A DNA stretch of 52,512 nt from Chryseobacterium gleum (GCA_945865695.1 CAMBFX010000002.1:1-52512), one strand, 5' to 3'. Counted from the stretch's first letter, positions 29,196 through 41,752 are shown. The notes: generated by a model from the letters alone, not told the origin. Program-made: numbers and translations.

Positions 29196-32100
29196 ATGAA
29201 ATACGTTTTTTTAACCATATTGATTGTTTTTACAGCTAACCTGAATAAGATTCATTCGCAAGCTTGTTTGAATAATTACCAGTATCGTGTTCCAATTTCG
29301 GTTCCTAATCTCAATGCCTCCGTATTGACTAATTTTCAAGTAAAAGTATTAGTGAATACATCAGCGCTGATTACTGCTGGAAAATTACGAATTGATGGAG
29401 GAGATGTTCGTTTTACTGATGGTAGCGGAACCAATCTTTCTTATTGGTTTGACCCTGCAACTTTCAATTTTCCCGCTACTGAGTATTGGGTGAAAGTGAA
29501 TAATTTGGCGCTTGGAGCAAATACCATTTATTTATTTTATGGCAATGCTACTGTTCCAGTAGTTGCGAGTGGAGATGCAACTTTTGAATACTTTGATGAA
29601 TTTTCAGGAACCGTTTTAGATAATTCTAAATGGAATCGTTGCGGAGATATTACCAATGTAACTTTAGCAGGTGGAATTATTAATTTTAGCTCAAATAATT
29701 CAGCACCTAATTTTAAAGATGGAATTATTACTTCACTTCAAACTTTTGGCAATAATGTAATTGTTGAAACTGATGTGGTTTCTGTCAATCAAGGAAAAGC
29801 TATTCTTGGATTTATGACAGCAGCTGAAGAAGGGTATGCTACCACTTTTGAAAAAACGACTGGTGTGGATATTTTTAAATTATCCAGAATTACTACTGAT
29901 GCGGTTACTTGTCAAATTCTAACCGATATTTTACCAACTTCTGCTGCAGGAACACTTTCTGGAATATGGTCATTTAGTTGGCCAACTGCTTCTAGTCAAA
30001 CTATCGGCTGGGCGAGTGGTGTTTCTTCGTTTACCTATGCAGATGCAATACATTCGGGTGTTTCGGGTAATCAGAAAAAAATTATTTTAGGATCGCATAT
30101 CAATGCTTCTACCAATACAGGTACATTAGCTATTGATTGGTTACGTGTAAGAAAATTAGCCATAGATCCAATTACGGTTTTAGGGGCTGAGCAAGAATAT
30201 CCTGTTTCTCCTAATCCAACCAATACTGGCCCTTATTGTAATGGCTCTACCATTCAATTTAACTCCACTTCTTATTCTGGAGCTGTTTATACCTGGAAAG
30301 ATCCTTCTAATGGTACTTTTTCTACGATATCAAATCCTACTATTTCGGGAAGTACAATTGGAAATACAGGAACGTATACATTAGAAATTGCTGTACCGGG
30401 ATGTGCACCTGTAGTGACCACTACTTTTGTGGATGTTTCTAATTCTTCGAATGCAGGAGTTACTTCTGGAACAACTACTGTTTGTTCAGGAACGAATGGA
30501 GGAACTGTTTCCGTTGCAGGAATTACAGGCAGTGTTGTAAGATGGGAAATGGCTAATAATATTGCTGGACCTTGGTTTACCATTTCTAGTTCAGCTACGA
30601 GTATGACTTATGCCAATTTGCTTCAAACTACTTTGTTTCGTCCGATAGTAAAAACAACGGCATGTCCTGAGGCAGTAGGAACAGCGGCTGTGATTACAGT
30701 AGATAATGCAACAGTTGGAGGTTTTGTCATAGGAGGAAATTCGGTTTGTGCAGGAACCAATAGCGGAACAGTGAATCTTGTTTTCCAATCAGGAACTGTA
30801 ACTAAATGGCAGTTTTCTATTGATGGCGGTTTAAGTTGGACAGATATCGTTTCGAATAGTACTTCTTATTCATTTACTAATATTTCTACAACCACATTAT
30901 ACAGAGCAGAAGTTAAAAATGGATCTTGTCCGGCACAATTTTCTGCAGCGGCAACGGTGATTGTAAATCCCCTTCCTGTTCCTGGTTTTTCGGTAGCAAC
31001 GGTTTGTGAAAGTGTAGCATCGAATTTTGTGAATACAACCACCATCGCTTCTGGTTCTATCGCCAATTATCAATGGGATTTTGGAAACAGCAGCAGTAGT
31101 ATCTCTGCCAACCCAATTTATATTTATCCCAACTACGGAATTTATTTCGTGCAATTGACTGCTGTTTCAAGTGCAGGTTGTACTGCCTCTACAAGTTCAT
31201 TGGTTACTGTCAATGCGGCTCCTGATGTTTTCTTTAATGCAGCTTCTGTTTGTCAAGGTTCACCAACCAACTTTCAAGCCATCGCTTTCGTTCCAGGCGG
31301 AGGATCAATCTCCAATTATTTTTGGGACCATGATGATGCTTCTACATCCACAGTTCCGATACATTCTTATACGTATTCTTCCACTGGGGTTTACGATGTA
31401 CTTTTAGTTGCAACTAGCAATAATGGCTGTATTGATTCGGTGCGTAATGCAGTAGAAGTAGCCGCGCCTGTTTCAGTGAGTTTTATTGCAGATAGTGTTT
31501 GTTTAGGAACGGCTATTAATTTCATCAATACTTCCGCCACTAATTCTCCAAGTGTATCTTATACTTGGGATTTCGGTAATGGAAATAATTCCACTTTGCT
31601 TAGTCCGATTTATAGTTATCCTGTTATTGGAACTTATACCGTTACTCTTCAAGCACAAGTAGTGGGATCTCCATCTGCATGCGTTTCTTCTACACAAAGG
31701 ACTGTTGTGATTTATGAAGTGCCCAATCCTAATTTTACATTGGCAAATGTTTGCTTGATCGATTCAGCTTCATTTACAAATCTTACTTTTTATACAGGAA
31801 ATCCAACTGATCTTTCTTATTCATGGAATTTCGGTGATGCCACCACAGAAACCTTAACGGATCCTTTTCATACCTATGTCTCACCCGGAAATTTTAATGT
31901 ACAATTGACTGCTTCCACTATCGATGGATGCTCTGCCACCAATACACAATTGATTTCTATTCATCCAATGCCAACGGCTAATTTTGCATTCACAGATGTT
32001 TGTTTGAATACAAATATGAATTTCACTTCTACCGCAACAGTGAGCAGCGGAACACTAACACATGCTTGGGATTTTGATGATGCTTCCACTTCACCCGTAC

Positions 32101-33212
32101 AAAATCCAATTCATTTGTATGGAGCAGATGGAACTTATGATGTTGAATTGATAGTTACCACCAATAATAATTGCCGTGATACCATTGTAAAAACAGTAAC
32201 CGTTTTTCCGCGTCCATTTGTAGATTTCATCAATACACCCGTTTGTGACGGACAACCGAGCACCTTCACCGAATCTACTTCTATTTCTGGTGGAACAGTG
32301 GTTTCTTTCGACTGGGATTATGGTGATGGTTCATCCGCCAATGGAAACTCAACTGTTTATCAATATTTGAATCCGGGAACGTATAATGTGACGCTAACTT
32401 CAACGTCAAATTTCGGTTGCACGCATGATACAACTAAAGCGGTAATTGTAGATGCAGTTCCTGTTCCTAATTTCACTGCTGCTGATGCTTGTTTCGGTGC
32501 CGCGAATCAATTTACCAATACATCCTCTGTATTAGGAAATGGGCCATTAACGCATTTATGGAGATTTGGCGATGGCGGAACTTCTGTTCTTACTTCTCCC
32601 GGAAATATTTATCCAGCTCCAGGATTTTATAATGTAACATTAGTTGTTACCACTGGTGCAGGTTGTGTAGATTCAATAATCAAAGTAACCGAAGTTTATG
32701 CTTTGCCAACAGTGAACGCAGGAAATGATACAACCATTTCAAAAGGAAATGAAGTACAATTAAACGGTTATGATCCTGCTGCTATTTCCTATTCATGGAC
32801 TCCAGTTGCTACATTAGATGTATCGGCGATACCCAATCCTATTGCACGACCAACGGATACTACCACTTATACATTGACGTTAACGGATTTTTTTGGATGT
32901 CAAAATACAGATGATATGACCATTAATGTATTGAATGATTTTAAAATTTTAATTCATAACGTAATCACGCCGGATGGAAACGGACAAAACGATGTTTGGT
33001 ACATTACCAATATTGATTTTTATCCTGAAGCTACGGTGCAATTATTTAATCGTTGGGGTGAATTGATTTACGAAACATTAAATTATCAAAATGATTGGAA
33101 TGGTGTAGTTGGAACCGATCAATTACCTGACGGAACTTACTATTACATTATCACTTTCCCGGATTCAGATATTCATTACAAAGGAGCAGTTACTTTATTA
33201 CGTAATAATTAA
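29196..33212 (+). CDS. Large T9SS type-B cargo: DUF2341-like plus LamG-like N-terminus, Ig-like repeats, 7 PKD domains, gliding-motility-associated (type-B) CTD
   Basis: Signal peptide ...VFTANLNKIHS/Q. YRVPISV...GGDVRFTDGSGTNLSYWFD is DUF2341-like. There are 7 WDFG(N/D)G-type PKD units. The C-terminus NVITPDGNGQNDVWYITNIDFYPEATVQLFNRWGELIYE...LPDGTYYYII is the type-B CTD signature. Confidence 0.9.
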   Translation: MKYVFLTILIVFTANLNKIHSQACLNNYQYRVPISVPNLNASVLTNFQVKVLVNTSALITAGKLRIDGGDVRFTDGSGTNLSYWFDPATFNFPATEYWVKVNNLALGANTIYLFYGNATVPVVASGDATFEYFDEFSGTVLDNSKWNRCGDITNVTLAGGIINFSSNNSAPNFKDGIITSLQTFGNNVIVETDVVSVNQGKAILGFMTAAEEGYATTFEKTTGVDIFKLSRITTDAVTCQILTDILPTSAAGTLSGIWSFSWPTASSQTIGWASGVSSFTYADAIHSGVSGNQKKIILGSHINASTNTGTLAIDWLRVRKLAIDPITVLGAEQEYPVSPNPTNTGPYCNGSTIQFNSTSYSGAVYTWKDPSNGTFSTISNPTISGSTIGNTGTYTLEIAVPGCAPVVTTTFVDVSNSSNAGVTSGTTTVCSGTNGGTVSVAGITGSVVRWEMANNIAGPWFTISSSATSMTYANLLQTTLFRPIVKTTACPEAVGTAAVITVDNATVGGFVIGGNSVCAGTNSGTVNLVFQSGTVTKWQFSIDGGLSWTDIVSNSTSYSFTNISTTTLYRAEVKNGSCPAQFSAAATVIVNPLPVPGFSVATVCESVASNFVNTTTIASGSIANYQWDFGNSSSSISANPIYIYPNYGIYFVQLTAVSSAGCTASTSSLVTVNAAPDVFFNAASVCQGSPTNFQAIAFVPGGGSISNYFWDHDDASTSTVPIHSYTYSSTGVYDVLLVATSNNGCIDSVRNAVEVAAPVSVSFIADSVCLGTAINFINTSATNSPSVSYTWDFGNGNNSTLLSPIYSYPVIGTYTVTLQAQVVGSPSACVSSTQRTVVIYEVPNPNFTLANVCLIDSASFTNLTFYTGNPTDLSYSWNFGDATTETLTDPFHTYVSPGNFNVQLTASTIDGCSATNTQLISIHPMPTANFAFTDVCLNTNMNFTSTATVSSGTLTHAWDFDDASTSPVQNPIHLYGADGTYDVELIVTTNNNCRDTIVKTVTVFPRPFVDFINTPVCDGQPSTFTESTSISGGTVVSFDWDYGDGSSANGNSTVYQYLNPGTYNVTLTSTSNFGCTHDTTKAVIVDAVPVPNFTAADACFGAANQFTNTSSVLGNGPLTHLWRFGDGGTSVLTSPGNIYPAPGFYNVTLVVTTGAGCVDSIIKVTEVYALPTVNAGNDTTISKGNEVQLNGYDPAAISYSWTPVATLDVSAIPNPIARPTDTTTYTLTLTDFFGCQNTDDMTINVLNDFKILIHNVITPDGNGQNDVWYITNIDFYPEATVQLFNRWGELIYETLNYQNDWNGVVGTDQLPDGTYYYIITFPDSDIHYKGAVTLLRNN

Positions 33213-33217
33213 TAATT

Positions 33218-34762
33218 ATGATAAAAGTAATTCACTCCACTATTAAAAAATCAAATAAGATGTTTAGGAAATCTCTTTCGATAGCATTATTTAGCGGTAT
33301 TTCCATTATCGGAATTTCTCAACAAACGGGTTCTTTAGATCATTATTTAGTGAATCAATATTTCATCAATCCTGCAGGAGCGGGAATGAATGGAACTTCC
33401 ATTTTTATGGATTACCGAAAGCAATGGTCAGGATTTACAGGAGCACCAGAGACACAAATTCTAGCAGTGGATGGAAATATTAAACGTGAATCGATGGGAT
33501 TAGGTTTGATGATTCAAAATGATCAAGTAAATGTTTTGGGTTCAACTTCTGTGATGGCTACTTATGCTTATCGAATAAAGTTTGCCGAACAAAATTATTT
33601 ACGTTTTGGTTTATCCTTAGGATTAATTCAAAACCGAATTATTTTTAGTCGTGTGATTGCACAAGATCCTTCTGAATTGCAAATTTTTCAGAACGATCAA
33701 AACAGCTCTACTTTTGATGGAAACGCAGGATTTATTTATGAAATTAAAAATCTTCAAGTAGGTTTTTCGGTTTCTCAATTATTAGGTGGACGTTATTACT
33801 ACGAGAATAATTTCCAAAGCAATACTTTGAATTTTTCAAACATTCGTCATTTTGTGGCCAATGCACAATATCGTTTTGATATTAAAAAAGGAAAATGGGG
33901 AGTGATGCCTTCTGTAATTTTAAGAACATCTCAAGGAATTGCCCCTTTGTATGAAGGAGGAGTAACGGGCTTTTACAAAAAATATGCATGGGCAACTTTT
34001 AGGTATTCCAACAAAGTAGGAATGTCTGCTTCTATTGGAGGAATCATTGCTAAAAATGTTGTTGCTGGTTATTCGTATTCGTTTAATAATAATGCCATGC
34101 GCAATTATAATCAAGGCACGCATGATATTATTCTTGGATTTAGAATTGGGGGAGGTAAAAAAGGCGGAAGTGATATAGATAGTAAGGAATTCGAAGAATT
34201 GAAAAATAAGAGCAATGAACTTTTTGAAAAAACAGATTACTTAAAAAGTGAGAATGAACAATTGCGTAAAGATTTAGAAGCGCAAAAACGAGCGATGAAA
34301 AATTCGGTTTATGGATTGGATAGCTTGAAAAAAATTATGGAAGGTGATATGGATGCTTTGCAGAAATTAATGAAGGAGAACGAAGAGAAGATGAAGAATT
34401 ACAAAGGAAGTGATAATAATGGAACGGGTAATAATGGAACGGGTTCAAACGGTACTGGTTCAAATGGAACTGTAAAAGTGAACGCAGATGGAGTAGAGGA
34501 TGTTCAGGATGGAAAAGTATACATCGTTATTGGTGCGGTAACGAAATTAGAAAACGCCAAGAAATATCAACAGATGATTAAACGTGAATATAATGAAGAA
34601 ACACAGATTGTGCAGGATGACAATCAATTTTGGTATTTCATTTACACGAAGTCTTTCGATAAGAAAGAAGATGCCGTTAAAGAACGCATGCGTGCAGATA
34701 AAGTGGATGTGAAGCAAATTTACATCGGTGATGCTTGGTATTATATTTCCAAGAAGAAGTAA
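33218..34762 (+). CDS. PorP/SprF-family T9SS outer-membrane protein fused to a coiled coil, an NGTGS low-complexity linker and a SPOR-like domain
   Basis: PorP/SprF N-terminal signature ...YLVNQYFINPAGAGMNGTSIFMDYRKQWSGFTGAPETQ. The alternative start M15 (33260) gives a cleaner signal peptide. The C-terminus VYIVIGAVTKLENAKKYQQMIKRE...FWYFIYTKSFDKKEDAV fits the SPOR beta-alpha-beta-beta pattern. Confidence 0.85.
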   Translation: MIKVIHSTIKKSNKMFRKSLSIALFSGISIIGISQQTGSLDHYLVNQYFINPAGAGMNGTSIFMDYRKQWSGFTGAPETQILAVDGNIKRESMGLGLMIQNDQVNVLGSTSVMATYAYRIKFAEQNYLRFGLSLGLIQNRIIFSRVIAQDPSELQIFQNDQNSSTFDGNAGFIYEIKNLQVGFSVSQLLGGRYYYENNFQSNTLNFSNIRHFVANAQYRFDIKKGKWGVMPSVILRTSQGIAPLYEGGVTGFYKKYAWATFRYSNKVGMSASIGGIIAKNVVAGYSYSFNNNAMRNYNQGTHDIILGFRIGGGKKGGSDIDSKEFEELKNKSNELFEKTDYLKSENEQLRKDLEAQKRAMKNSVYGLDSLKKIMEGDMDALQKLMKENEEKMKNYKGSDNNGTGNNGTGSNGTGSNGTVKVNADGVEDVQDGKVYIVIGAVTKLENAKKYQQMIKREYNEETQIVQDDNQFWYFIYTKSFDKKEDAVKERMRADKVDVKQIYIGDAWYYISKKK

Positions 34763-35564: not shown

Positions 35565-36692
35565 TTATTTAAAAATATCAAAATATTCTTCGAAAAAATA
35601 TATTCTGTTACGTTGGCTTTCGTTTAATGATTTTAGGATTTTTAGTTTTATAAAATCTTCAATTAATTTATACGAAGAGACCAATGATAAACCTGTAATT
35701 TCTGCCACTTCCCTTGGGCGAACCACTGGGTTACTAAACAAATGATGCAATAAAAGTTCTGCTTGAATGGATTTTTTTCCAAGCTTCACTATTCTTTTTG
35801 TTTCGCAATGTTGTTTTAATTGTATGATTTTCTTTAAACCATTAATTGCTTTTTCAGCTGTTTCAATAACGCCAACCAAAAAGAATTTAAGCCATTGTTT
35901 TAAATCACTTTTGATACGAACAGTTGTTAAATGTTCGTAATACAAACTCCGATGTCTTTCAAAAAAATCGGAGAGATACAATACCGGTTTATTCAAAACA
36001 TCTGCATGAATAAAATAGAGTGTAATTAATAATCTTCCGATACGACCGTTACCATCCAAAAACGGGTGAATCGTTTCAAATTGATAATGGGCCAATGCTA
36101 CTTTTATCACATGTGGTAAACCACTTTCATCCGAATGAAGAAATTTTTCTAAATCACCGATGAGCGATTCCACTTCTTGCCAAACAGGTGGAATATAAGA
36201 AGCGTCTTTCAAGGTGGCACCGCCAATCCAGTTTTGACTTTTACGGTATTCTCCAGGTAATTTATGTTTTCCTCTAACGCCTCTCAATAATGTTTTCTGC
36301 GCTTGTTTCAATAAACGCGAAGAGAGTGGAAGCGTTTTTAATTCTTTCACACTATGGTTCAAGGCAACAATATAATTATTCACTTCCTGCCAATCGTTGC
36401 GTTTCTCTGGTTCGATTTCCATTTCGGTAAGAAAAACTTCTTCCATGGTGGTTTGTGTTCCTTCCATCTTACTCGAAACATTTGCTTCTTTTGATATATA
36501 CAAACGAATAAAATGATCGATATCGGGAACCAACTCGGCATACGCATTTAATTCACCCAATTTTAAATTGGCTTTTTCAGTAAGCACAACCAAATCGGGA
36601 TCATCAAAAACATAAGAGCGATTGATGAACTCCGGTTGAAAGGCTTTATAGTTCAAGGCTTGAATTCGCTGCCCTGATTTGAACTTTTTCAT
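35565..36692 (-). CDS. Class-II Fic family protein (probable AMPylase) with C-terminal winged-helix domain
   Basis: Fic motif HPFLDGNGRIGRLL. The N-terminal inhibitory-helix motif SSKMEG fits (S/T)xxxE(G/N). C-terminal wHTH-like segment PREVAEITGLSLVSSYKLIEDFIKLKIL. Confidence 0.9.
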   Translation of the reverse strand: MKKFKSGQRIQALNYKAFQPEFINRSYVFDDPDLVVLTEKANLKLGELNAYAELVPDIDHFIRLYISKEANVSSKMEGTQTTMEEVFLTEMEIEPEKRNDWQEVNNYIVALNHSVKELKTLPLSSRLLKQAQKTLLRGVRGKHKLPGEYRKSQNWIGGATLKDASYIPPVWQEVESLIGDLEKFLHSDESGLPHVIKVALAHYQFETIHPFLDGNGRIGRLLITLYFIHADVLNKPVLYLSDFFERHRSLYYEHLTTVRIKSDLKQWLKFFLVGVIETAEKAINGLKKIIQLKQHCETKRIVKLGKKSIQAELLLHHLFSNPVVRPREVAEITGLSLVSSYKLIEDFIKLKILKSLNESQRNRIYFFEEYFDIFK

Positions 36693-37852: not shown

Positions 37853-40060
37853 TCATAAAACCTTTTCAAAAATCCCAACTACTCTAAAATTAATCAATTC
37901 ATCATCCGAAAGTTCGATGTCGGAATAATTTGCAAGGTTGGATAATGGTTTTAAGGTAATGGATTGATGCTTCCATTCATCAAGTGAGGTTTTCTTTTTA
38001 CTATGATATTCTTTAACCGTATAACCTGAACCAAATTCAGAATCTTTTATATTAGTCGATTCAACTAATACGATTTTACCATTCCTAGTTCCGCCTTCAT
38101 CTTGTTTGAATAGACAATAGGAACCATTCGGAATTTTCTTATTCATAGATTCACCTATAACCTTACAAACAAAATAACCTTTTTTCGCAGCAATATTCAT
38201 TGGAGGTTCAATCCAAGTTAATTCGGAATGATTTTGCAAATCACTAAAGTTTCCAGCCGCGGCAGAAATATCTACCAATGGAATACAGTTGACATATGGT
38301 TTTACTTCATCATTACGTATAATTCTGAATGGGATTTCCTTTTCGAACATTTGAATATGTTGTTTGAAATAATCTCTTAATTCTTTGTTATAAGCATAAA
38401 CGAATGTTCCTTTTATTCCACGATACATGATTGTTTTGTAAATATTGATGATGTATGATTTCAGTTGCTCAGGATTAGAAATTCCCTTTTTCCCATTAAT
38501 GTCAAAATATTTTTTTGGATCTATTTCAATTATATTTTTTTCCTTATTGTAATTTATTTCCTTTCCGAAGATCACAGCAGTATAATTCAAGTCATATCCT
38601 TGAGTGGTATGTATACATCCAACTTCTTCAAATGCATTTTCCGAATTAATCCAATCTTTATCGGTAGAATTCCATTTGAATTTTAATCCATCCAAATCAA
38701 TGTCAGTCACATTTGAAACAGGTTTTGGATCCAGTTTCGGATTCGACAACCATTGCCAAGCATATCCTGCAATCATTCTACATAATCCAAATTGATGTTC
38801 TCTTTTTACTAATTCAGAATGAAGATCAATGAACGAATCAAAAATCAGTAGTTCATATTTCTCTTCTTGGTATTTAGAATTTTCACTTCTTTTGACATGA
38901 AGTAAATCATCAACAAATTGAATGTAATTATTCCCTCCATTCACTCTCATTTGAGATTTTAATGCGAGTTGTAATGTAGATTTATTCGTTAATAATTTGA
39001 GGAAGTTTTTAGAGTCTACATCTGAAGGTTTTACAGATTGTGCAGAATCATAAAAGAAAATTTGATTTTTACTGTTTGCCAAAATCCAATCCAATTCGGT
39101 TCCACTATCATCCAAACCTAGTTTTTGATTGTTCTTCTTGAATGCGCCCATCCAACTGATATTTTTATATTGTCTTAAACGATGAGCTTCATCTACAATC
39201 AATAAATCATATTTATCTTTTAGTTTGAACGTATCAGATGGATTAACGATCATTGATGATTTTAATCCTGGAATTTTTTTGAAAACATTTTCTAAAGATT
39301 CTCTCAAAGAAGTCATTGCTACAACTAATCCTATTTTTGCATTAGGATATTTTGTTTGGAATGCTTTGATATAATTTATTTCCCTTAACTCATCATCATT
39401 AAATTCTTCTAATTGATTATTTTCAACAACAGTAAGCAATAGTTTCATTAAATAGGTTGCGAGAATGGTTTTTCCAGTTCCTGCACTACCACTAATAAAA
39501 ATCTGGTTTGATTTTTTAGATGCCAATCCATCTAAAATTTCTAAAACAGATTGATATTGGTCTTCATTTAGTGATTTGTAAGGAGAATATTTGAAAAGTT
39601 CAGAATTTTCAATTTCAGTTAAAGATTTGGTGACAATTTTTTTCTCCACCAATTTGTTCCAAACTTCTTTAAATAGATTTCTATATAAATCTTGTTGGTA
39701 ATATTTATGATTGATTAAACCGTAATTTCCATTTTGCAATTCAAAAGTTCCTTCGGCAGTGATATATTGAATTAAATTAGACTCAATATCTAACGTAGCA
39801 GATTTATTGAATTTATCTGAACCAATGATGGAAATTTTATCCAATTTACATCTTTCTGGATTTGCCAAATGATTTTTGATTCTACTAGCTGCATTGGTAG
39901 ATTCACCAACATAAGCCAATTTTTTGGAATCACTTTGAATGAAATAAACTAAAGGCCATTGATTTTTAACCCAAGTGTTTTGCTCTATTTTGGGTAATGA
40001 TTCCTTTTTGAAATCAAATTTTTCTGAAATTTCAATTGATAATTCGAATGATAAACTCAT
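37853..40060 (-). CDS. Three-domain fusion: GIY-YIG nuclease, DUF2075-like P-loop (SF1-like) helicase/NTPase, and LexA-type S24 self-cleaving peptidase domain
   Basis: GIY-YIG: LVYFIQ...LAYVGES...R..NH...LDIESNLIQYI (aa ~37-100). Core: KYSPYKSLNEDQ, Walker A GSAGTGKT (nt 39467-39490), Walker B LLIVDEAHRL. C-terminus: PLVDISAAAGNF (LexA-like Ala-Gly cleavage context), VIGESMNKKIPNGSYCLF (Ser nucleophile motif), YTVKEY (Lys). Confidence 0.85.
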   Translation of the reverse strand: MSLSFELSIEISEKFDFKKESLPKIEQNTWVKNQWPLVYFIQSDSKKLAYVGESTNAASRIKNHLANPERCKLDKISIIGSDKFNKSATLDIESNLIQYITAEGTFELQNGNYGLINHKYYQQDLYRNLFKEVWNKLVEKKIVTKSLTEIENSELFKYSPYKSLNEDQYQSVLEILDGLASKKSNQIFISGSAGTGKTILATYLMKLLLTVVENNQLEEFNDDELREINYIKAFQTKYPNAKIGLVVAMTSLRESLENVFKKIPGLKSSMIVNPSDTFKLKDKYDLLIVDEAHRLRQYKNISWMGAFKKNNQKLGLDDSGTELDWILANSKNQIFFYDSAQSVKPSDVDSKNFLKLLTNKSTLQLALKSQMRVNGGNNYIQFVDDLLHVKRSENSKYQEEKYELLIFDSFIDLHSELVKREHQFGLCRMIAGYAWQWLSNPKLDPKPVSNVTDIDLDGLKFKWNSTDKDWINSENAFEEVGCIHTTQGYDLNYTAVIFGKEINYNKEKNIIEIDPKKYFDINGKKGISNPEQLKSYIINIYKTIMYRGIKGTFVYAYNKELRDYFKQHIQMFEKEIPFRIIRNDEVKPYVNCIPLVDISAAAGNFSDLQNHSELTWIEPPMNIAAKKGYFVCKVIGESMNKKIPNGSYCLFKQDEGGTRNGKIVLVESTNIKDSEFGSGYTVKEYHSKKKTSLDEWKHQSITLKPLSNLANYSDIELSDDELINFRVVGIFEKVL

Positions 40061-40395
40061 AGTTCATCATATTTCTTCGCAGTTCCTTTCGCCTTTTCAA
40101 CTGGATATTTTTCACCATTCTTTTTTATTTTATCCAACACAATTTGTTTTACATCCAAATTATGTCTTTCAGCCAATAAGAATGCGTACGCAAAAACATC
40201 GGCCAACTCTTCTTTTAATTTTTCTTTATTTACGTTTTCACTTTCCTTCACATCTTTCCAAAGAAATAATTCATTGAGCTCGGCTGCTTCAATAGAAATG
40301 GCTGTGGCTAAATTTTTTGAATCATGAAATTGTTCCCAATCACGTTCGTTGCGGAATTTAAGAAGGGCAGAGGTAATTTCTTGGATATCGGTCAT
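40057..40395 (-). CDS. MazG-type nucleoside triphosphate pyrophosphohydrolase (DCTPP1-like, all-alpha)
   Basis: FRNERDWEQFHDSKNLATAISIEAAELNELFLWK...EELADVFAYAFLLAERHNLD...KNGEKYP. Its stop overlaps the start of the downstream fusion gene (ATGA at 40057-40060). Confidence 0.85.
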   Translation of the reverse strand: MTDIQEITSALLKFRNERDWEQFHDSKNLATAISIEAAELNELFLWKDVKESENVNKEKLKEELADVFAYAFLLAERHNLDVKQIVLDKIKKNGEKYPVEKAKGTAKKYDEL

Positions 40396-40613
40396 AATTG
40401 TATTCTGTTATTCATTTGCGGTGAAAGTAAATTTATAGTGGGTTAAATTTAGCCTATTTAACCAATATATCAATAGGAAAATAATAGGAATGATACTTGT
40501 TTCAATAATCATTGGACTTCTTACCTCATCAACATCACAATTCTAGCCGCAAACGTAATATATTTCCTTTTATTTCTGATTAAAACAATTATAATCAACT
40601 ACTTATATATTAG

Positions 40614-40655
40614 TTGTACAAAACGTACAATTATTGTACAATTTGTATAACTTTG
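40614..40655 (+). promoter_or_regulatory. Operator-like TTGTACAA palindrome array overlapping a -7 box (TAACTTTG)
   Basis: Perfect 8-bp palindrome TTGTACAA at 40614-40621 and 40634-40641. Degenerate copies acGTACAA at 40623-40630 and TTGTAtAA at 40643-40650, giving ~10-bp phasing. TAACTTTG at 40648-40655 lies 28 nt upstream of the ATG at 40683. Confidence 0.5.
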
Positions 40656-40682: not shown

Positions 40683-41204
40683 ATGAAAGTTCGTATTATC
40701 GAAATAGCAACAGGCAGATATGTAAATGGAGAAATCCGGATTCCCGAAAAAGAAATGGAATTACCATCCTTACAACTAGGATGGAGATTTAATTTTATGA
40801 AACATTCAAAATCAAAAGGAGCTAAAACTTTTATTTTGGTTAAGGAAGAAACACTGGATATTATTGAAGGTTGTTTGATATTTGAAATGAAAAATAATCA
40901 AGAACCTTATATGGCTTATATTGAACTTGCGCCTCATAATAGAGGTGACAAAAGAAGGCATGAGGAAGTAGCGGGCTGTTTAATCGCTTTTGCATCTCGT
41001 TTGAGTTTTGATTATGGCGAAGGACCTTTCAGAGGCTTTTTGGCATTTCATGTTTCAGAAGAAAAAGAAAAAGATCAAATTAAACTTATCTCTCATTATA
41101 GCAAACAGTACAATGCTATATGGCTAAAAGGAACAAAAAAAATGATCATTCATCCTGAAGTAGGTGAAAAATTAATCAATAAATATTTAAAACCATTTTT
41201 ATGA
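40683..41204 (+). CDS. Hypothetical protein, possibly GNAT-like fold
   Basis: 173-aa ORF. The segment IEGCLIFEM...YMAYIELAPHNRG...EVAGCLIAFASRLSFDYGEGPFRGFLAFHV resembles an acetyltransferase beta4-alpha3 region, but no clear Q/RxxGxG/A motif is present. Confidence 0.55.
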   Translation: MKVRIIEIATGRYVNGEIRIPEKEMELPSLQLGWRFNFMKHSKSKGAKTFILVKEETLDIIEGCLIFEMKNNQEPYMAYIELAPHNRGDKRRHEEVAGCLIAFASRLSFDYGEGPFRGFLAFHVSEEKEKDQIKLISHYSKQYNAIWLKGTKKMIIHPEVGEKLINKYLKPFL

Positions 41205-41248: not shown

Positions 41249-41752
41249 ATGAAAACAAAGAAAATTAAGATAAAGGGAAAAGCCACCGGAGTCAATGAAA
41301 TATCCGAAAAGGAAATCTGGAATAAGGATGAACTGGATAAAGTTAGAGAATATATCCTAAAAGAATCCAAGAAGCAAAGTCCGGAGCAAAAATTGAGAAA
41401 TGAATTATTGTCGATTCAGTTTAAAATGGAAGACTATATTCAGAATAATGAAATAGAAAATGAGATGAACTTATCCGATTTTTTCAAACTCTATTTGAAA
41501 GTTTTGCATTTAAAACAAAATCAAATTGCAGAAGTATTAGAAATGCAAGACAGTAATCTCATTAAATATTTGAATGGTGATAGAGGATTAAATCCGGATT
41601 TTGTTATGAAGTTGAGTTCATTTTTTCATACGAAGCCGGAACTTTGGTATATGGTAGAAATAAAGAATAACTTGAATAAATTAAAAACGGAGAATAAGCA
41701 AATCAATAAGTATAAAAAGTACGATTATCGTAAATTTGTAACAGCTATTTAA
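41249..41752 (+). CDS. XRE/HigA-like helix-turn-helix protein
   Basis: The C-terminal half KQNQIAEVLEMQDSNLIKYLNGDRGLNPDFVMKLSSFF is a classic XRE-type HTH. The N-terminal ~70 aa is charged and helical. Confidence 0.65.
   Translation: MKTKKIKIKGKATGVNEISEKEIWNKDELDKVREYILKESKKQSPEQKLRNELLSIQFKMEDYIQNNEIENEMNLSDFFKLYLKVLHLKQNQIAEVLEMQDSNLIKYLNGDRGLNPDFVMKLSSFFHTKPELWYMVEIKNNLNKLKTENKQINKYKKYDYRKFVTAI

Follow-up and report, generated by a model that had tools for sequence, protein, structure and literature searches.

The window analysed here is a 52,512-nt stretch of DNA from Chryseobacterium gleum (GCA_945865695.1 CAMBFX010000002.1:1-52512). Between positions 37,853 and 40,395, its minus strand carries two overlapping genes, encoding a 112-aa MazG-like nucleoside triphosphate (NTP) pyrophosphohydrolase and a 735-aa fusion of a GIY-YIG nuclease domain, a DUF2075-type helicase and a LexA-type S24 self-cleavage module. 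Sequence comparisons indicate that the conserved unit is the MazG-like protein together with the DUF2075 nuclease-helicase, with the S24 module and the type of nuclease as interchangeable accessories, and that the module is a horizontally mobile member of a widespread family that has no name. We tentatively propose that it represents an unnamed variant of nuclease–DUF2075-helicase defence gated by S24 autoproteolysis, a reading that we consider a serious possibility but place a little short of probable. An initial annotation of this DNA had suggested a two-gene immunity or abortive system that answers to DNA damage or phage replication. The idea of a two-gene defence system gains comparative support from the conserved pairing, the variable genomic context, the swapped terminal domains and the defence-related relatives and neighbours, whereas damage sensing proved to be only an add-on. 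The layout of the locus is as follows.

40057..40395, minus strand: gene 1, MazG-like all-alpha NTP pyrophosphohydrolase, 112 aa (Pfam, PHROG, conserved metal-binding residues)
37853..40060, minus strand: gene 2, fusion of GIY-YIG, superfamily 1B (SF1B) DUF2075 helicase and S24, 735 aa, stop codon included (open reading frame (ORF), Pfam, orthologues)
40057..40060, minus strand: ATGA stop/start overlap, translational coupling (sequence)
39716..39973, minus strand: GIY-YIG nuclease domain, about aa 30-115 (Pfam, I-TevI alignment, invariant residues, AlphaFold2 (AF2) model)
38351..39613, minus strand: SF1B helicase core of DUF2075/SLFN group III type, about aa 150-570 (Pfam, Foldseek)
39467-39490, minus strand: Walker A motif
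39182-39193, minus strand: Walker B motif, DEAH
38252..38257, minus strand: predicted scissile bond Ala602-Gly603 (alignment to LexA A84-G85)
37856..38251, minus strand: S24 catalytic core, aa 604-735 (Pfam, PHROG, hhalign to LexA)
38147-38149, minus strand: Ser638 codon
38012-38014, minus strand: Lys683 codon
40396..40612, minus strand: upstream non-coding region, presumed promoter of the two-gene operon (no gene abuts MazG)

Both ORFs and the overlap at 40057-40060, which the initial annotation had described as a pair of minus-strand genes sharing an ATGA stop/start, are plain in the sequence. The same 4-bp overlap recurs in nearly all orthologous loci, so it is not a product of chance. Every domain that had been named for the two proteins was recovered by Pfam, and all four catalytic modules (GIY-YIG, helicase, S24 and MazG) look intact, as their catalytic residues are kept in orthologues and in diverse relatives.

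The helicase is the best-defined part of the fusion protein. The Pfam family SLFN-g3_helicase/DUF2075 (PF09848) spans residues 187-557 with E=1.8e-61, in agreement with the earlier assignment of a DUF2075-type P-loop NTPase with Walker A and B motifs. Among 42 full-length orthologues the Walker A motif GSAGTGKT (residues 191-198), the Walker B motif DEAH (290-293) and the element FKYSPYKSL..DQ (156-168) are invariant or nearly so, and among 108 diverse relatives at 30-81% identity K197, E291, P160 and Q168 are invariant and D290 is also conserved. The KYSPY element, which had been offered as a mark of the family, is therefore well conserved, but falls just outside the Pfam DUF2075 envelope. 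A full-length AF2 model was of mediocre quality (predicted local distance difference test (pLDDT) 71, predicted template modelling score (pTM) 0.44). Its Foldseek matches were RecD2 (2.5e-9), RecD, Dda, Dna2, SLFN11 (7zel, 4.5e-7) and Upf1, which places the core in SF1B; this list was crowded by helicases and is uninformative on the terminal domains. A sequence search of the full 735-aa protein against the PDB gave no match.

At the N-terminus, PF01541 matches residues 37-72 with 24.1 bits against a cutoff of 22.6, a marginal pass confined to the first half of the domain. The residues Y39, Y50, G52, R60, H64, E93 and N110 are invariant in the 42 orthologues; across the 108 relatives the positions Y50, R60, H64 and N110 do not vary, and Y39, G52 and E93 are kept in at least 90%. 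A profile search with the terminal domain aligned I-TevI (1mk0) on the GIY-YIG motif, although weakly (E=0.27), and a qualitative reading of the full-length AF2 model shows a β-β-α-β-α core (strands 37-43 and 48-54, helix 57-66, strand 75-81, helix 86-103) at pLDDT 75-89. The GIY-YIG core with conserved Tyr/Gly, Arg and Glu positions, as originally described, is borne out by the Pfam match and by this pattern of conservation.

The C-terminus carries what looks to be a complete LexA/UmuD-type S24 module with predicted self-cleavage, as the initial annotation had held. Peptidase_S24 (PF00717) matches residues 595-687 at 29.1 bits against a cutoff of 23.3, and the PHROG profile phrog_4, the C-terminal region of CI-type repressors, covers residues 592-729 (9.8e-9). 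Profile-to-sequence alignment with hhalign, using an Escherichia coli LexA sequence identical to PDB 7b5g, pairs A602-G603, S638 and K683 with LexA A84-G85, S119 and K156, that is, with the scissile site, the Ser nucleophile and the Lys general base. The 42 orthologues show no variation at A602, S638 or K683, and at least 90% of them have G603. In representatives at 38-51% overall identity the site is Ala-Gly or, as in UmuD, Cys-Gly, and G-x-S-M and (T/S)(V/I)K are retained; the Ser and Lys are both present in 11 of 12 distant representatives. The exception, a 728-aa protein (P0123), lacks the Ala-Gly site (…EDRTPIGS…) and has Arg in place of the catalytic Lys (TIRIY), so its S24 module is probably non-cleaving. 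A profile search of the C-terminal domain against the PDB gave a weak LexA match. An AF2 model of the C-terminal domain by itself was poor (pLDDT 54), and its top Foldseek match was the lambda cI cleavable fragment 2ho0 (E=0.031, probability 0.91, all others at 0.2 or below), which may be taken as weak but specific support for an S24 fold.

In the 112-aa protein, Pfam detects the MazG-like family PF12643 (E=8.5e-20), a PHROG pyrophosphatase profile matches at 3e-17, and the E-x-x-E...E-x-x-D metal site is present. Its acidic residues E36, E39, E42, E63 and D66 are each retained in at least 90% of 60 diverse partner proteins, and with the family match this upholds the MazG/DCTPP1 motifs first read from the sequence. 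Two long ORFs directly upstream of helicase genes (L090:3087-4583, 498 aa; L115:3963-5942, 659 aa) carry a MazG-like domain at their C-terminus; they may be true fusions, or the ORFs may have been overextended in GC-rich contigs.

The architecture of the 735-aa protein is common. A search returned 7067 matches, and the best 120 of these are all full-length, 75-99% identical, and come from metagenome-assembled genomes and isolates of Bacteroidota; 50 genome loci, spread over different Bacteroidota orders, have full-length orthologues at 58-98% identity. When representatives at 50% identity were searched, 441 clusters were recovered at E<1e-30. Most of these are proteins of ~560-590 aa with GIY-YIG and helicase only, and full-length clusters with S24 number about 13 among the best 150. 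On these sequences the S24 domain is an accessory module of a larger GIY-YIG–DUF2075 family, and because most members of the family do not have it, damage sensing is an addition to the system and not its core.

The partner gene is far more constant. A MazG-like gene lies directly upstream in 48 of the 49 close loci that have upstream DNA, and in 41 of the 42 with both flanks. For a more diverse set, 80 metagenomic loci at 26-73% identity were collected with the family profile, and the 63 with both flanks were scored: a MazG-like gene lies near the helicase gene in 49 of them. In 41 it is the next gene upstream and in 5 the next one downstream, encoded on the same strand, and in 3 it takes some other position nearby; about a fifth of the loci have no MazG-like gene. 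The check for conserved adjacency that had been suggested at the outset thus gave a positive answer in both sets. The pair is also found on the Bacillus thuringiensis megaplasmid pIS56-233, annotated as 'nucleotide pyrophosphohydrolase' and 'DUF2075 domain-containing protein' with MazG upstream, and with a NUDIX hydrolase, a zeta toxin and an HNH nuclease nearby. Further plasmid-borne relatives occur in Bacillus, Streptomyces, Paenibacillus, Enterococcus, Hymenobacter and archaea, hence in Bacillota, Actinomycetota, Bacteroidota and archaea. A MazG gene upstream of a helicase relative was seen in a faecal phage-like contig as well. Carriage by phages was considered and rejected: IMG/VR holds no close relative, and GenBank phages gave four weak or partial matches, of which the best is that unverified faecal contig. 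In view of the IMG/VR result, the module is taken to be cellular or plasmid-borne and not phage-borne. Flanking genes differ between the 50 genome loci of close homologues, while the proteins remain 75-82% identical across different Bacteroidota orders.

Such strict coupling through overlapping codons, together with mobility, plasmid carriage and the presence nearby of the zeta toxin and other toxin-antitoxin-like genes, would fit a selfish addiction cassette in which the nuclease-helicase is a toxin, MazG its neutraliser, and coupling a means of stabilising the cassette. We consider this very unlikely. A pure binding antitoxin would not be expected to keep its catalytic residues over wide divergence as MazG does, the gene order is variable, as the loci with MazG downstream attest, some loci do without MazG altogether, and the proteins are far larger than typical toxin-antitoxin components.

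The ends of the fusion protein are modular. In a sister group of ~790-820 aa, only the helicase and S24 parts match the 735-aa protein, and the N-terminal ~260 aa have instead a PD-(D/E)XK signature (KRIDFI.TG ... I.ELKQW) without any Pfam match. The group comprises loci L101-L110, L114, L116, L117, L119, L120 and L122 (e.g. L110:5266-7638), most of them with MazG upstream, and its members would in effect be 'Nhi-like + S24' proteins, to judge by their motifs. One protein of the sister group comes from a human gut metagenome. Versions without S24 were found at L128, L131 and L132, and two loci (L066, L067) have a GIY-YIG-helicase with a divergent S24 domain, found by Pfam at 3e-19 in L066. At L107:1307-3691 and L120:5266-7637 the helicase (~665-680 aa) and the S24 core (~103-113 aa) are called as separate ORFs, which may reflect a frameshift, a pseudogene or a natural split.

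The module also occurs with three genes. In 10 close and 7 metagenomic loci a TPR protein of 557-659 aa is stop-start coupled to MazG; its repeats are N-terminal, and its C-terminal ~400 aa have no annotation. The gene is found at L010:3321-4994, L012:1055-3031, L015, L020, L021, L023, L025, L044, L047, L050 and L054-L056, and in distant versions at L101, L105, L106 and L117. In L017 and L018, decayed 3' pieces of the TPR gene are left upstream of MazG. The locus at 37853-40395 is of the two-gene form, with no TPR gene abutting MazG.

The search for a named system to which the module might belong was made against the PADLOC v2.0.0 models, and no strong full-length match of both genes to one named system or candidate was obtained. 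The literature consulted likewise yielded no description of a MazG–DUF2075 pair or of S24 fused to a defence effector, and the earlier remark that this architecture is not a named defence system stands. The only PADLOC match of the 112-aa MazG was RmrA, at 3e-4. Relatives of the fusion protein do match PADLOC Nhi (1e-10 to 1e-15), AbiO and PDC-S41, and the nearest characterised proteins are involved in defence against phages. Nhi of Staphylococcus epidermidis (SERP2475; Bari et al. 2022) joins a PD-(D/E)XK nuclease to DUF2075, needs no partner and forms dimers, and its proposed task is to sense and degrade the replication intermediates of phages; the anti-phage Nhi-like protein of Bacillus cereus (Millman et al. 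2022) has an N-terminus of PD-(D/E)XK type. Like these, the 735-aa protein combines an N-terminal nuclease and a DUF2075/SF1B helicase in one polypeptide, and Nhi-like aligns collinearly with the PD-(D/E)XK-bearing relatives of the 735-aa protein. They differ from it in having PD-(D/E)XK in place of GIY-YIG, in lacking S24, and in being single genes with no pyrophosphatase partner. Membership of Nhi-like itself was rejected, as BLASTP aligns only the P-loop (E=0.028) and there is no PADLOC Nhi match. AbiO of Lactococcus, which joins a PD-(D/E)XK nuclease to an SLFN3-type SF1B helicase, causes toxicity when present in many copies and has an abortive infection phenotype. It shares with our protein the union of a nuclease and an SLFN group-3-type SF1B helicase, and is its best PADLOC match (6.4e-10), but this match covers part of the helicase, and AbiO has a PD-(D/E)XK N-terminus, a length of ~470 aa, and neither S24 nor a described MazG partner. 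As it departs from them in nuclease type, in hidden Markov model match and in not being a single gene, the module is Nhi/AbiO-like yet not a member of either system.

Other comparisons concern single parts of the module. Human SLFN11 has a helicase of the same family, by the PF09848 and 7zel matches given above; it binds single-stranded DNA (ssDNA) at stressed forks and kills damaged cells, a mode of action that parallels, by analogy, a helicase wired to a sensor of RecA-ssDNA. It differs in its N-terminal tRNA-cleaving Schlafen RNase domain and in the lack of S24, GIY-YIG and a MazG partner. Bacterial Schlafens described in 2025-26 papers share that RNase domain and not the helicase of the 735-aa protein, and were set aside as unrelated; the GIY-YIG type IV enzyme CMoRE also proved unrelated on checking. 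LexA, UmuD and lambda cI have the same Ala-Gly or Cys-Gly site, G-x-S-M serine and T-V-K lysine, with the cleavage site N-terminal to the core, but in those proteins S24 is joined to a DNA-binding repressor domain or to a polymerase-manager tail, whereas here it is attached to a nuclease-helicase of ~600 residues and cleavage is predicted. The MazG partner shares family (PF12643) and metal site with DCTPP1/MazG-like house-cleaning enzymes, which are encoded by stand-alone genes, whereas the 112-aa MazG is translationally coupled to the nuclease-helicase across phyla. Published abstracts on two defence systems provide a looser precedent: in Kongming, the KomBC effector complex, which dITP activates, contains KomB as a subunit with an NTP pyrophosphatase fold, and in Gabija, (d)ATP and (d)GTP are hydrolysed by GajB, the companion of the nickase GajA. 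Both KomBC and GajAB unite a defence effector with a subunit of nucleotide-hydrolase type, and the likeness is an analogy only, as their HAM1/ITPase-like or UvrD-like folds differ from all-alpha MazG, their effectors are others, and there is no sequence relationship.

The neighbours of the module were compared with PADLOC profiles, and the tallies are lower-bound matches to hidden Markov models and not system calls. The 126 neighbours of close homologues include SoFic (twice), PDC-S41 (4.6e-289), a Pycsar cyclase with a 2TM effector, DpdF/PsyrT-like proteins, SspH and mad6; PDC-M62A and a TPR-GreAB-C-PIN protein also occur near the module. Fic-like genes lie near the module in L003, L007, L037 and L040, and RhuM in L006, L010 and L043. 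The 148 neighbours in diverse loci include PDC-M22A/B, HerA with SIR2, mREase_IV, DruE, Dsr1 and NERD. Altogether ~6-7% of neighbouring proteins are strong PADLOC matches, a crude estimate of enrichment to be set beside the ~1.5% of bacterial genes that a review abstract gives for defence genes. Strong matches do recur, but with many housekeeping genes among the neighbours, the enrichment in defence islands appears only moderate. The PDC-S41 neighbour, from a locus within L020-L044, fits that model almost perfectly over its full length and is itself of nuclease-DUF2075 type, so that two different nuclease-helicases of this kind would there stand side by side.

The housekeeping surroundings of many loci would suit a different role, in the repair or tolerance of DNA damage, wherein the nuclease-helicase would act on stalled forks or lesions, S24 would make its activity or its persistence depend on RecA filaments, as happens with UmuD, and MazG would clear damaged dNTPs from the pool. 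S24, GIY-YIG and house-cleaning MazG proteins all have established roles in damage responses, UvrC and Slx1 being examples that use GIY-YIG domains; purifying selection is strong (82% identity in the nuclease domain), and the context is stable within one species. The distribution is nonetheless patchy and the location varies between genomes, relatives are carried on plasmids, the nuclease type is swapped among them, type IV restriction, SoFic, Pycsar and similar systems recur as neighbours, and the nearest characterised relatives are phage-defence proteins. Nor is there a Bacteroidetes SOS box upstream. The LexA-like operators of this phylum are CTAA-N5-TTAG and GGA-N5-TCC (PMC8565304), and 13.8 kb of upstream DNA from 46 loci contained no exact copy of the former and one of the latter, at or below background. 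SOS-box regulation of the module was rejected on this account, and any control by damage would be post-translational, not transcriptional. We regard a repair module, the main alternative, as unlikely, if still worth keeping in mind. A scan of the upstream DNA for sigma-70 promoters and terminators gave only background, with a sigma-70 model that is unsuited to Bacteroidota, and comparison of upstream regions across loci gave no conserved motif besides the TPR-gene remnants.

Three loci bear on a further alternative. At L004:4334-7631, L007:4348-7645 and L008:4349-7646, a 134-aa NUDIX hydrolase (PADLOC PDC-S07, 3.5e-43) and then a 966-aa type IV enzyme of PLD-nuclease/SF2-helicase/DUF3427 make-up (mREase_IV, 1.5e-239) are encoded immediately upstream of MazG and the fusion gene, giving two 'small NTP pyrophosphatase + nuclease-helicase' pairs in tandem. 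DCTPP1 prefers 5-modified dCTPs, and the module could be a type IV-like restriction system for modified DNA in which MazG hydrolyses the matching modified dNTPs, so as to deprive the phage of them or to keep salvaged ones out of host DNA, where they would provoke self-attack. The position of our pair directly after the NUDIX and PLD-helicase-DUF3427 genes fits this, as do the NUDIX and HNH genes near the Bacillus plasmid copy and a DUF3578 protein, putatively McrB-N-like, directly upstream of a relative on a Paenibacillus plasmid. It has also been reported that DUF2075 NTPases adjoin DUF3427 enzymes (Lutz et al. 2019), which counts in the same direction. Against this, Pfam recognises no modified-base reader (SRA, PUA, EVE, DUF3427 or McrB-N) in the 735-aa protein, and the association with type IV enzymes is limited to few loci; we judge such a system to be improbable.

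Several observations weigh against S24-gated nuclease–DUF2075-helicase defence, and temper our confidence in it. The 735-aa protein has no PADLOC match to Nhi at E<=0.01, its AbiO match is partial, and its matches to PDC-S14 and PDC-S41 are weak. The Nhi-like protein acts as a single gene, with no MazG partner. Recognition of RecA filaments cannot be the core mechanism in a family that for the most part has no S24, the S24 fold is structurally weakly supported (pLDDT 54, Foldseek E=0.03), and cleavage independent of RecA occurs in some S24 proteins, as noted in the abstract of PMC7101444. Conservation is unusually high for defence genes, with a mean identity of 82% in the N-terminal domain, and many neighbours are ordinary metabolic or housekeeping genes.

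If the module does work as an S24-gated defence system, its mechanism might be as follows. In resting cells the S24 domain would hold the protein in check as a proenzyme that is inactive and probably a dimer. Where RecA-ssDNA filaments form on damaged DNA or on the intermediates of phage replication, they would stimulate cleavage at Ala602-Gly603, separating the 602-residue nuclease-helicase from the 133-residue S24 (dimerisation) domain and releasing it; the helicase could then load on aberrant or replicating DNA, and the nuclease degrade that DNA in the manner of Nhi and AbiO. Through translational coupling, MazG would be made in fixed proportion, and several roles may be envisaged for it. 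It might hydrolyse non-canonical or phage-specific dNTPs and so starve the invader, keep salvaged modified nucleotides out of host DNA, serve as a nucleotide-sensing regulatory subunit of the effector in the way of KomB, or couple nucleotide hydrolysis to DNA cleavage in the way of GajB. Protection of the host from modified nucleotides is attractive because of the tandem NUDIX–type IV and MazG–GIY-YIG pairs, which hint at a general design rule.

The direction of the switch deserves separate comment. LexA and lambda cI lose activity on cleavage, when their functional N-terminal domain is cut off from the dimerisation domain, and by this precedent the intact dimer would be the active form here, with RecA-stimulated cleavage inactivating or destabilising it during the SOS response and sparing the cell's own repair intermediates. 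That Nhi acts as a dimer, and that relatives lacking S24 evidently function without a cleavage step, would suit such a scheme. UmuD follows the opposite logic and is activated by cleavage, so precedent does not settle the direction of the switch. We weakly favour cleavage that activates, and think it distinctly improbable that the LexA direction applies.

A bolder interpretation is that the module does in bacteria what SLFN11 does in human cells, killing under replication stress, with a nuclease-helicase proenzyme restrained by S24 and released by autoproteolysis on RecA-ssDNA once phage replication or DNA damage has filled the cell with ssDNA, an obligate MazG-fold partner that senses or destroys (d)NTPs, and a family that spans phyla; this we put forward as speculative, and hold to be doubtful. 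Were these ideas true, S24 self-cleavage, familiar from repressors and a polymerase subunit, would for the first time be seen to switch an immune effector. The LexA-type switch would thereby have gained another use, in which a DNA-damage signal directly arms (or disarms) a nuclease-helicase after translation. The MazG–helicase pair would constitute a new defence family with interchangeable nuclease and sensor ends and, with 441 clusters distributed over Bacteroidota, Bacillota, Actinomycetota and archaea, on chromosomes as well as plasmids, a widespread addition to the bacterial immune repertoire. It would add another nucleotide hydrolase as the obligate partner of a DNA-targeting effector, beside Gabija and Kongming, and provide a tractable bacterial model for Schlafen-type helicases that couple ssDNA sensing to destructive output.

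In the C. gleum window, the module sits in a patch of low GC (~30% over 38-41.5 kb, against 35-40% in the flanks). Like the unconserved flanking genes, the high protein identity across orders, the plasmid carriage and the modular ends, this is a trait typical of conflict systems. Downstream of it are a cupin gene and a Fic gene (35565-36692, minus strand), the latter with a full-length PADLOC SoFic match of 2.4e-112 and an NCBIfam score of 167 bits, below the 550-bit equivalog cutoff. Upstream, on the opposite strand, lies a 173-aa ORF (40683-41204, plus strand) for which Pfam, PADLOC, NCBIfam and PHROGs all gave no match; after it comes a 167-aa protein (41249-41752, plus strand) with a C-terminal HigA-like helix-turn-helix (HTH) domain (TIGR02607, 9.8e-8; PHROG 'plasmid antitoxin with HTH'). 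The two are possibly a novel toxin-antitoxin-like pair, by their arrangement and the HTH match. They are missing from L001, the nearest relative, whose module is 97% identical to ours, and must therefore be a separate insertion. The accessory island pictured in the initial annotation, with Fic and a toxin-antitoxin-like pair beside the module, is secure with respect to Fic; its second element comes down to a HigA-like HTH protein and an ORF without matches, which L001 does not have.

Some 40 bp upstream of the 173-aa ORF (ATG at 40683), three TGTACA/CGTACA hexamers with 10-bp spacing (40615, 40625 and 40635) are followed by TTTGTATAA (40612-40650, plus strand). Of the 11 TTGTACR matches in the whole window, 5 fall within those 28 bp, and the cluster is probably the operator or promoter of the two insertion genes and not part of the MazG module. 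Further away, at 29196-34762 on the plus strand, is a gene for a 1338-aa surface protein with PKD/CHU_C domains, followed by a PorP/SprF-family protein (Pfam); these suit a Flavobacteriales-like host and represent ordinary cargo of type IX secretion.

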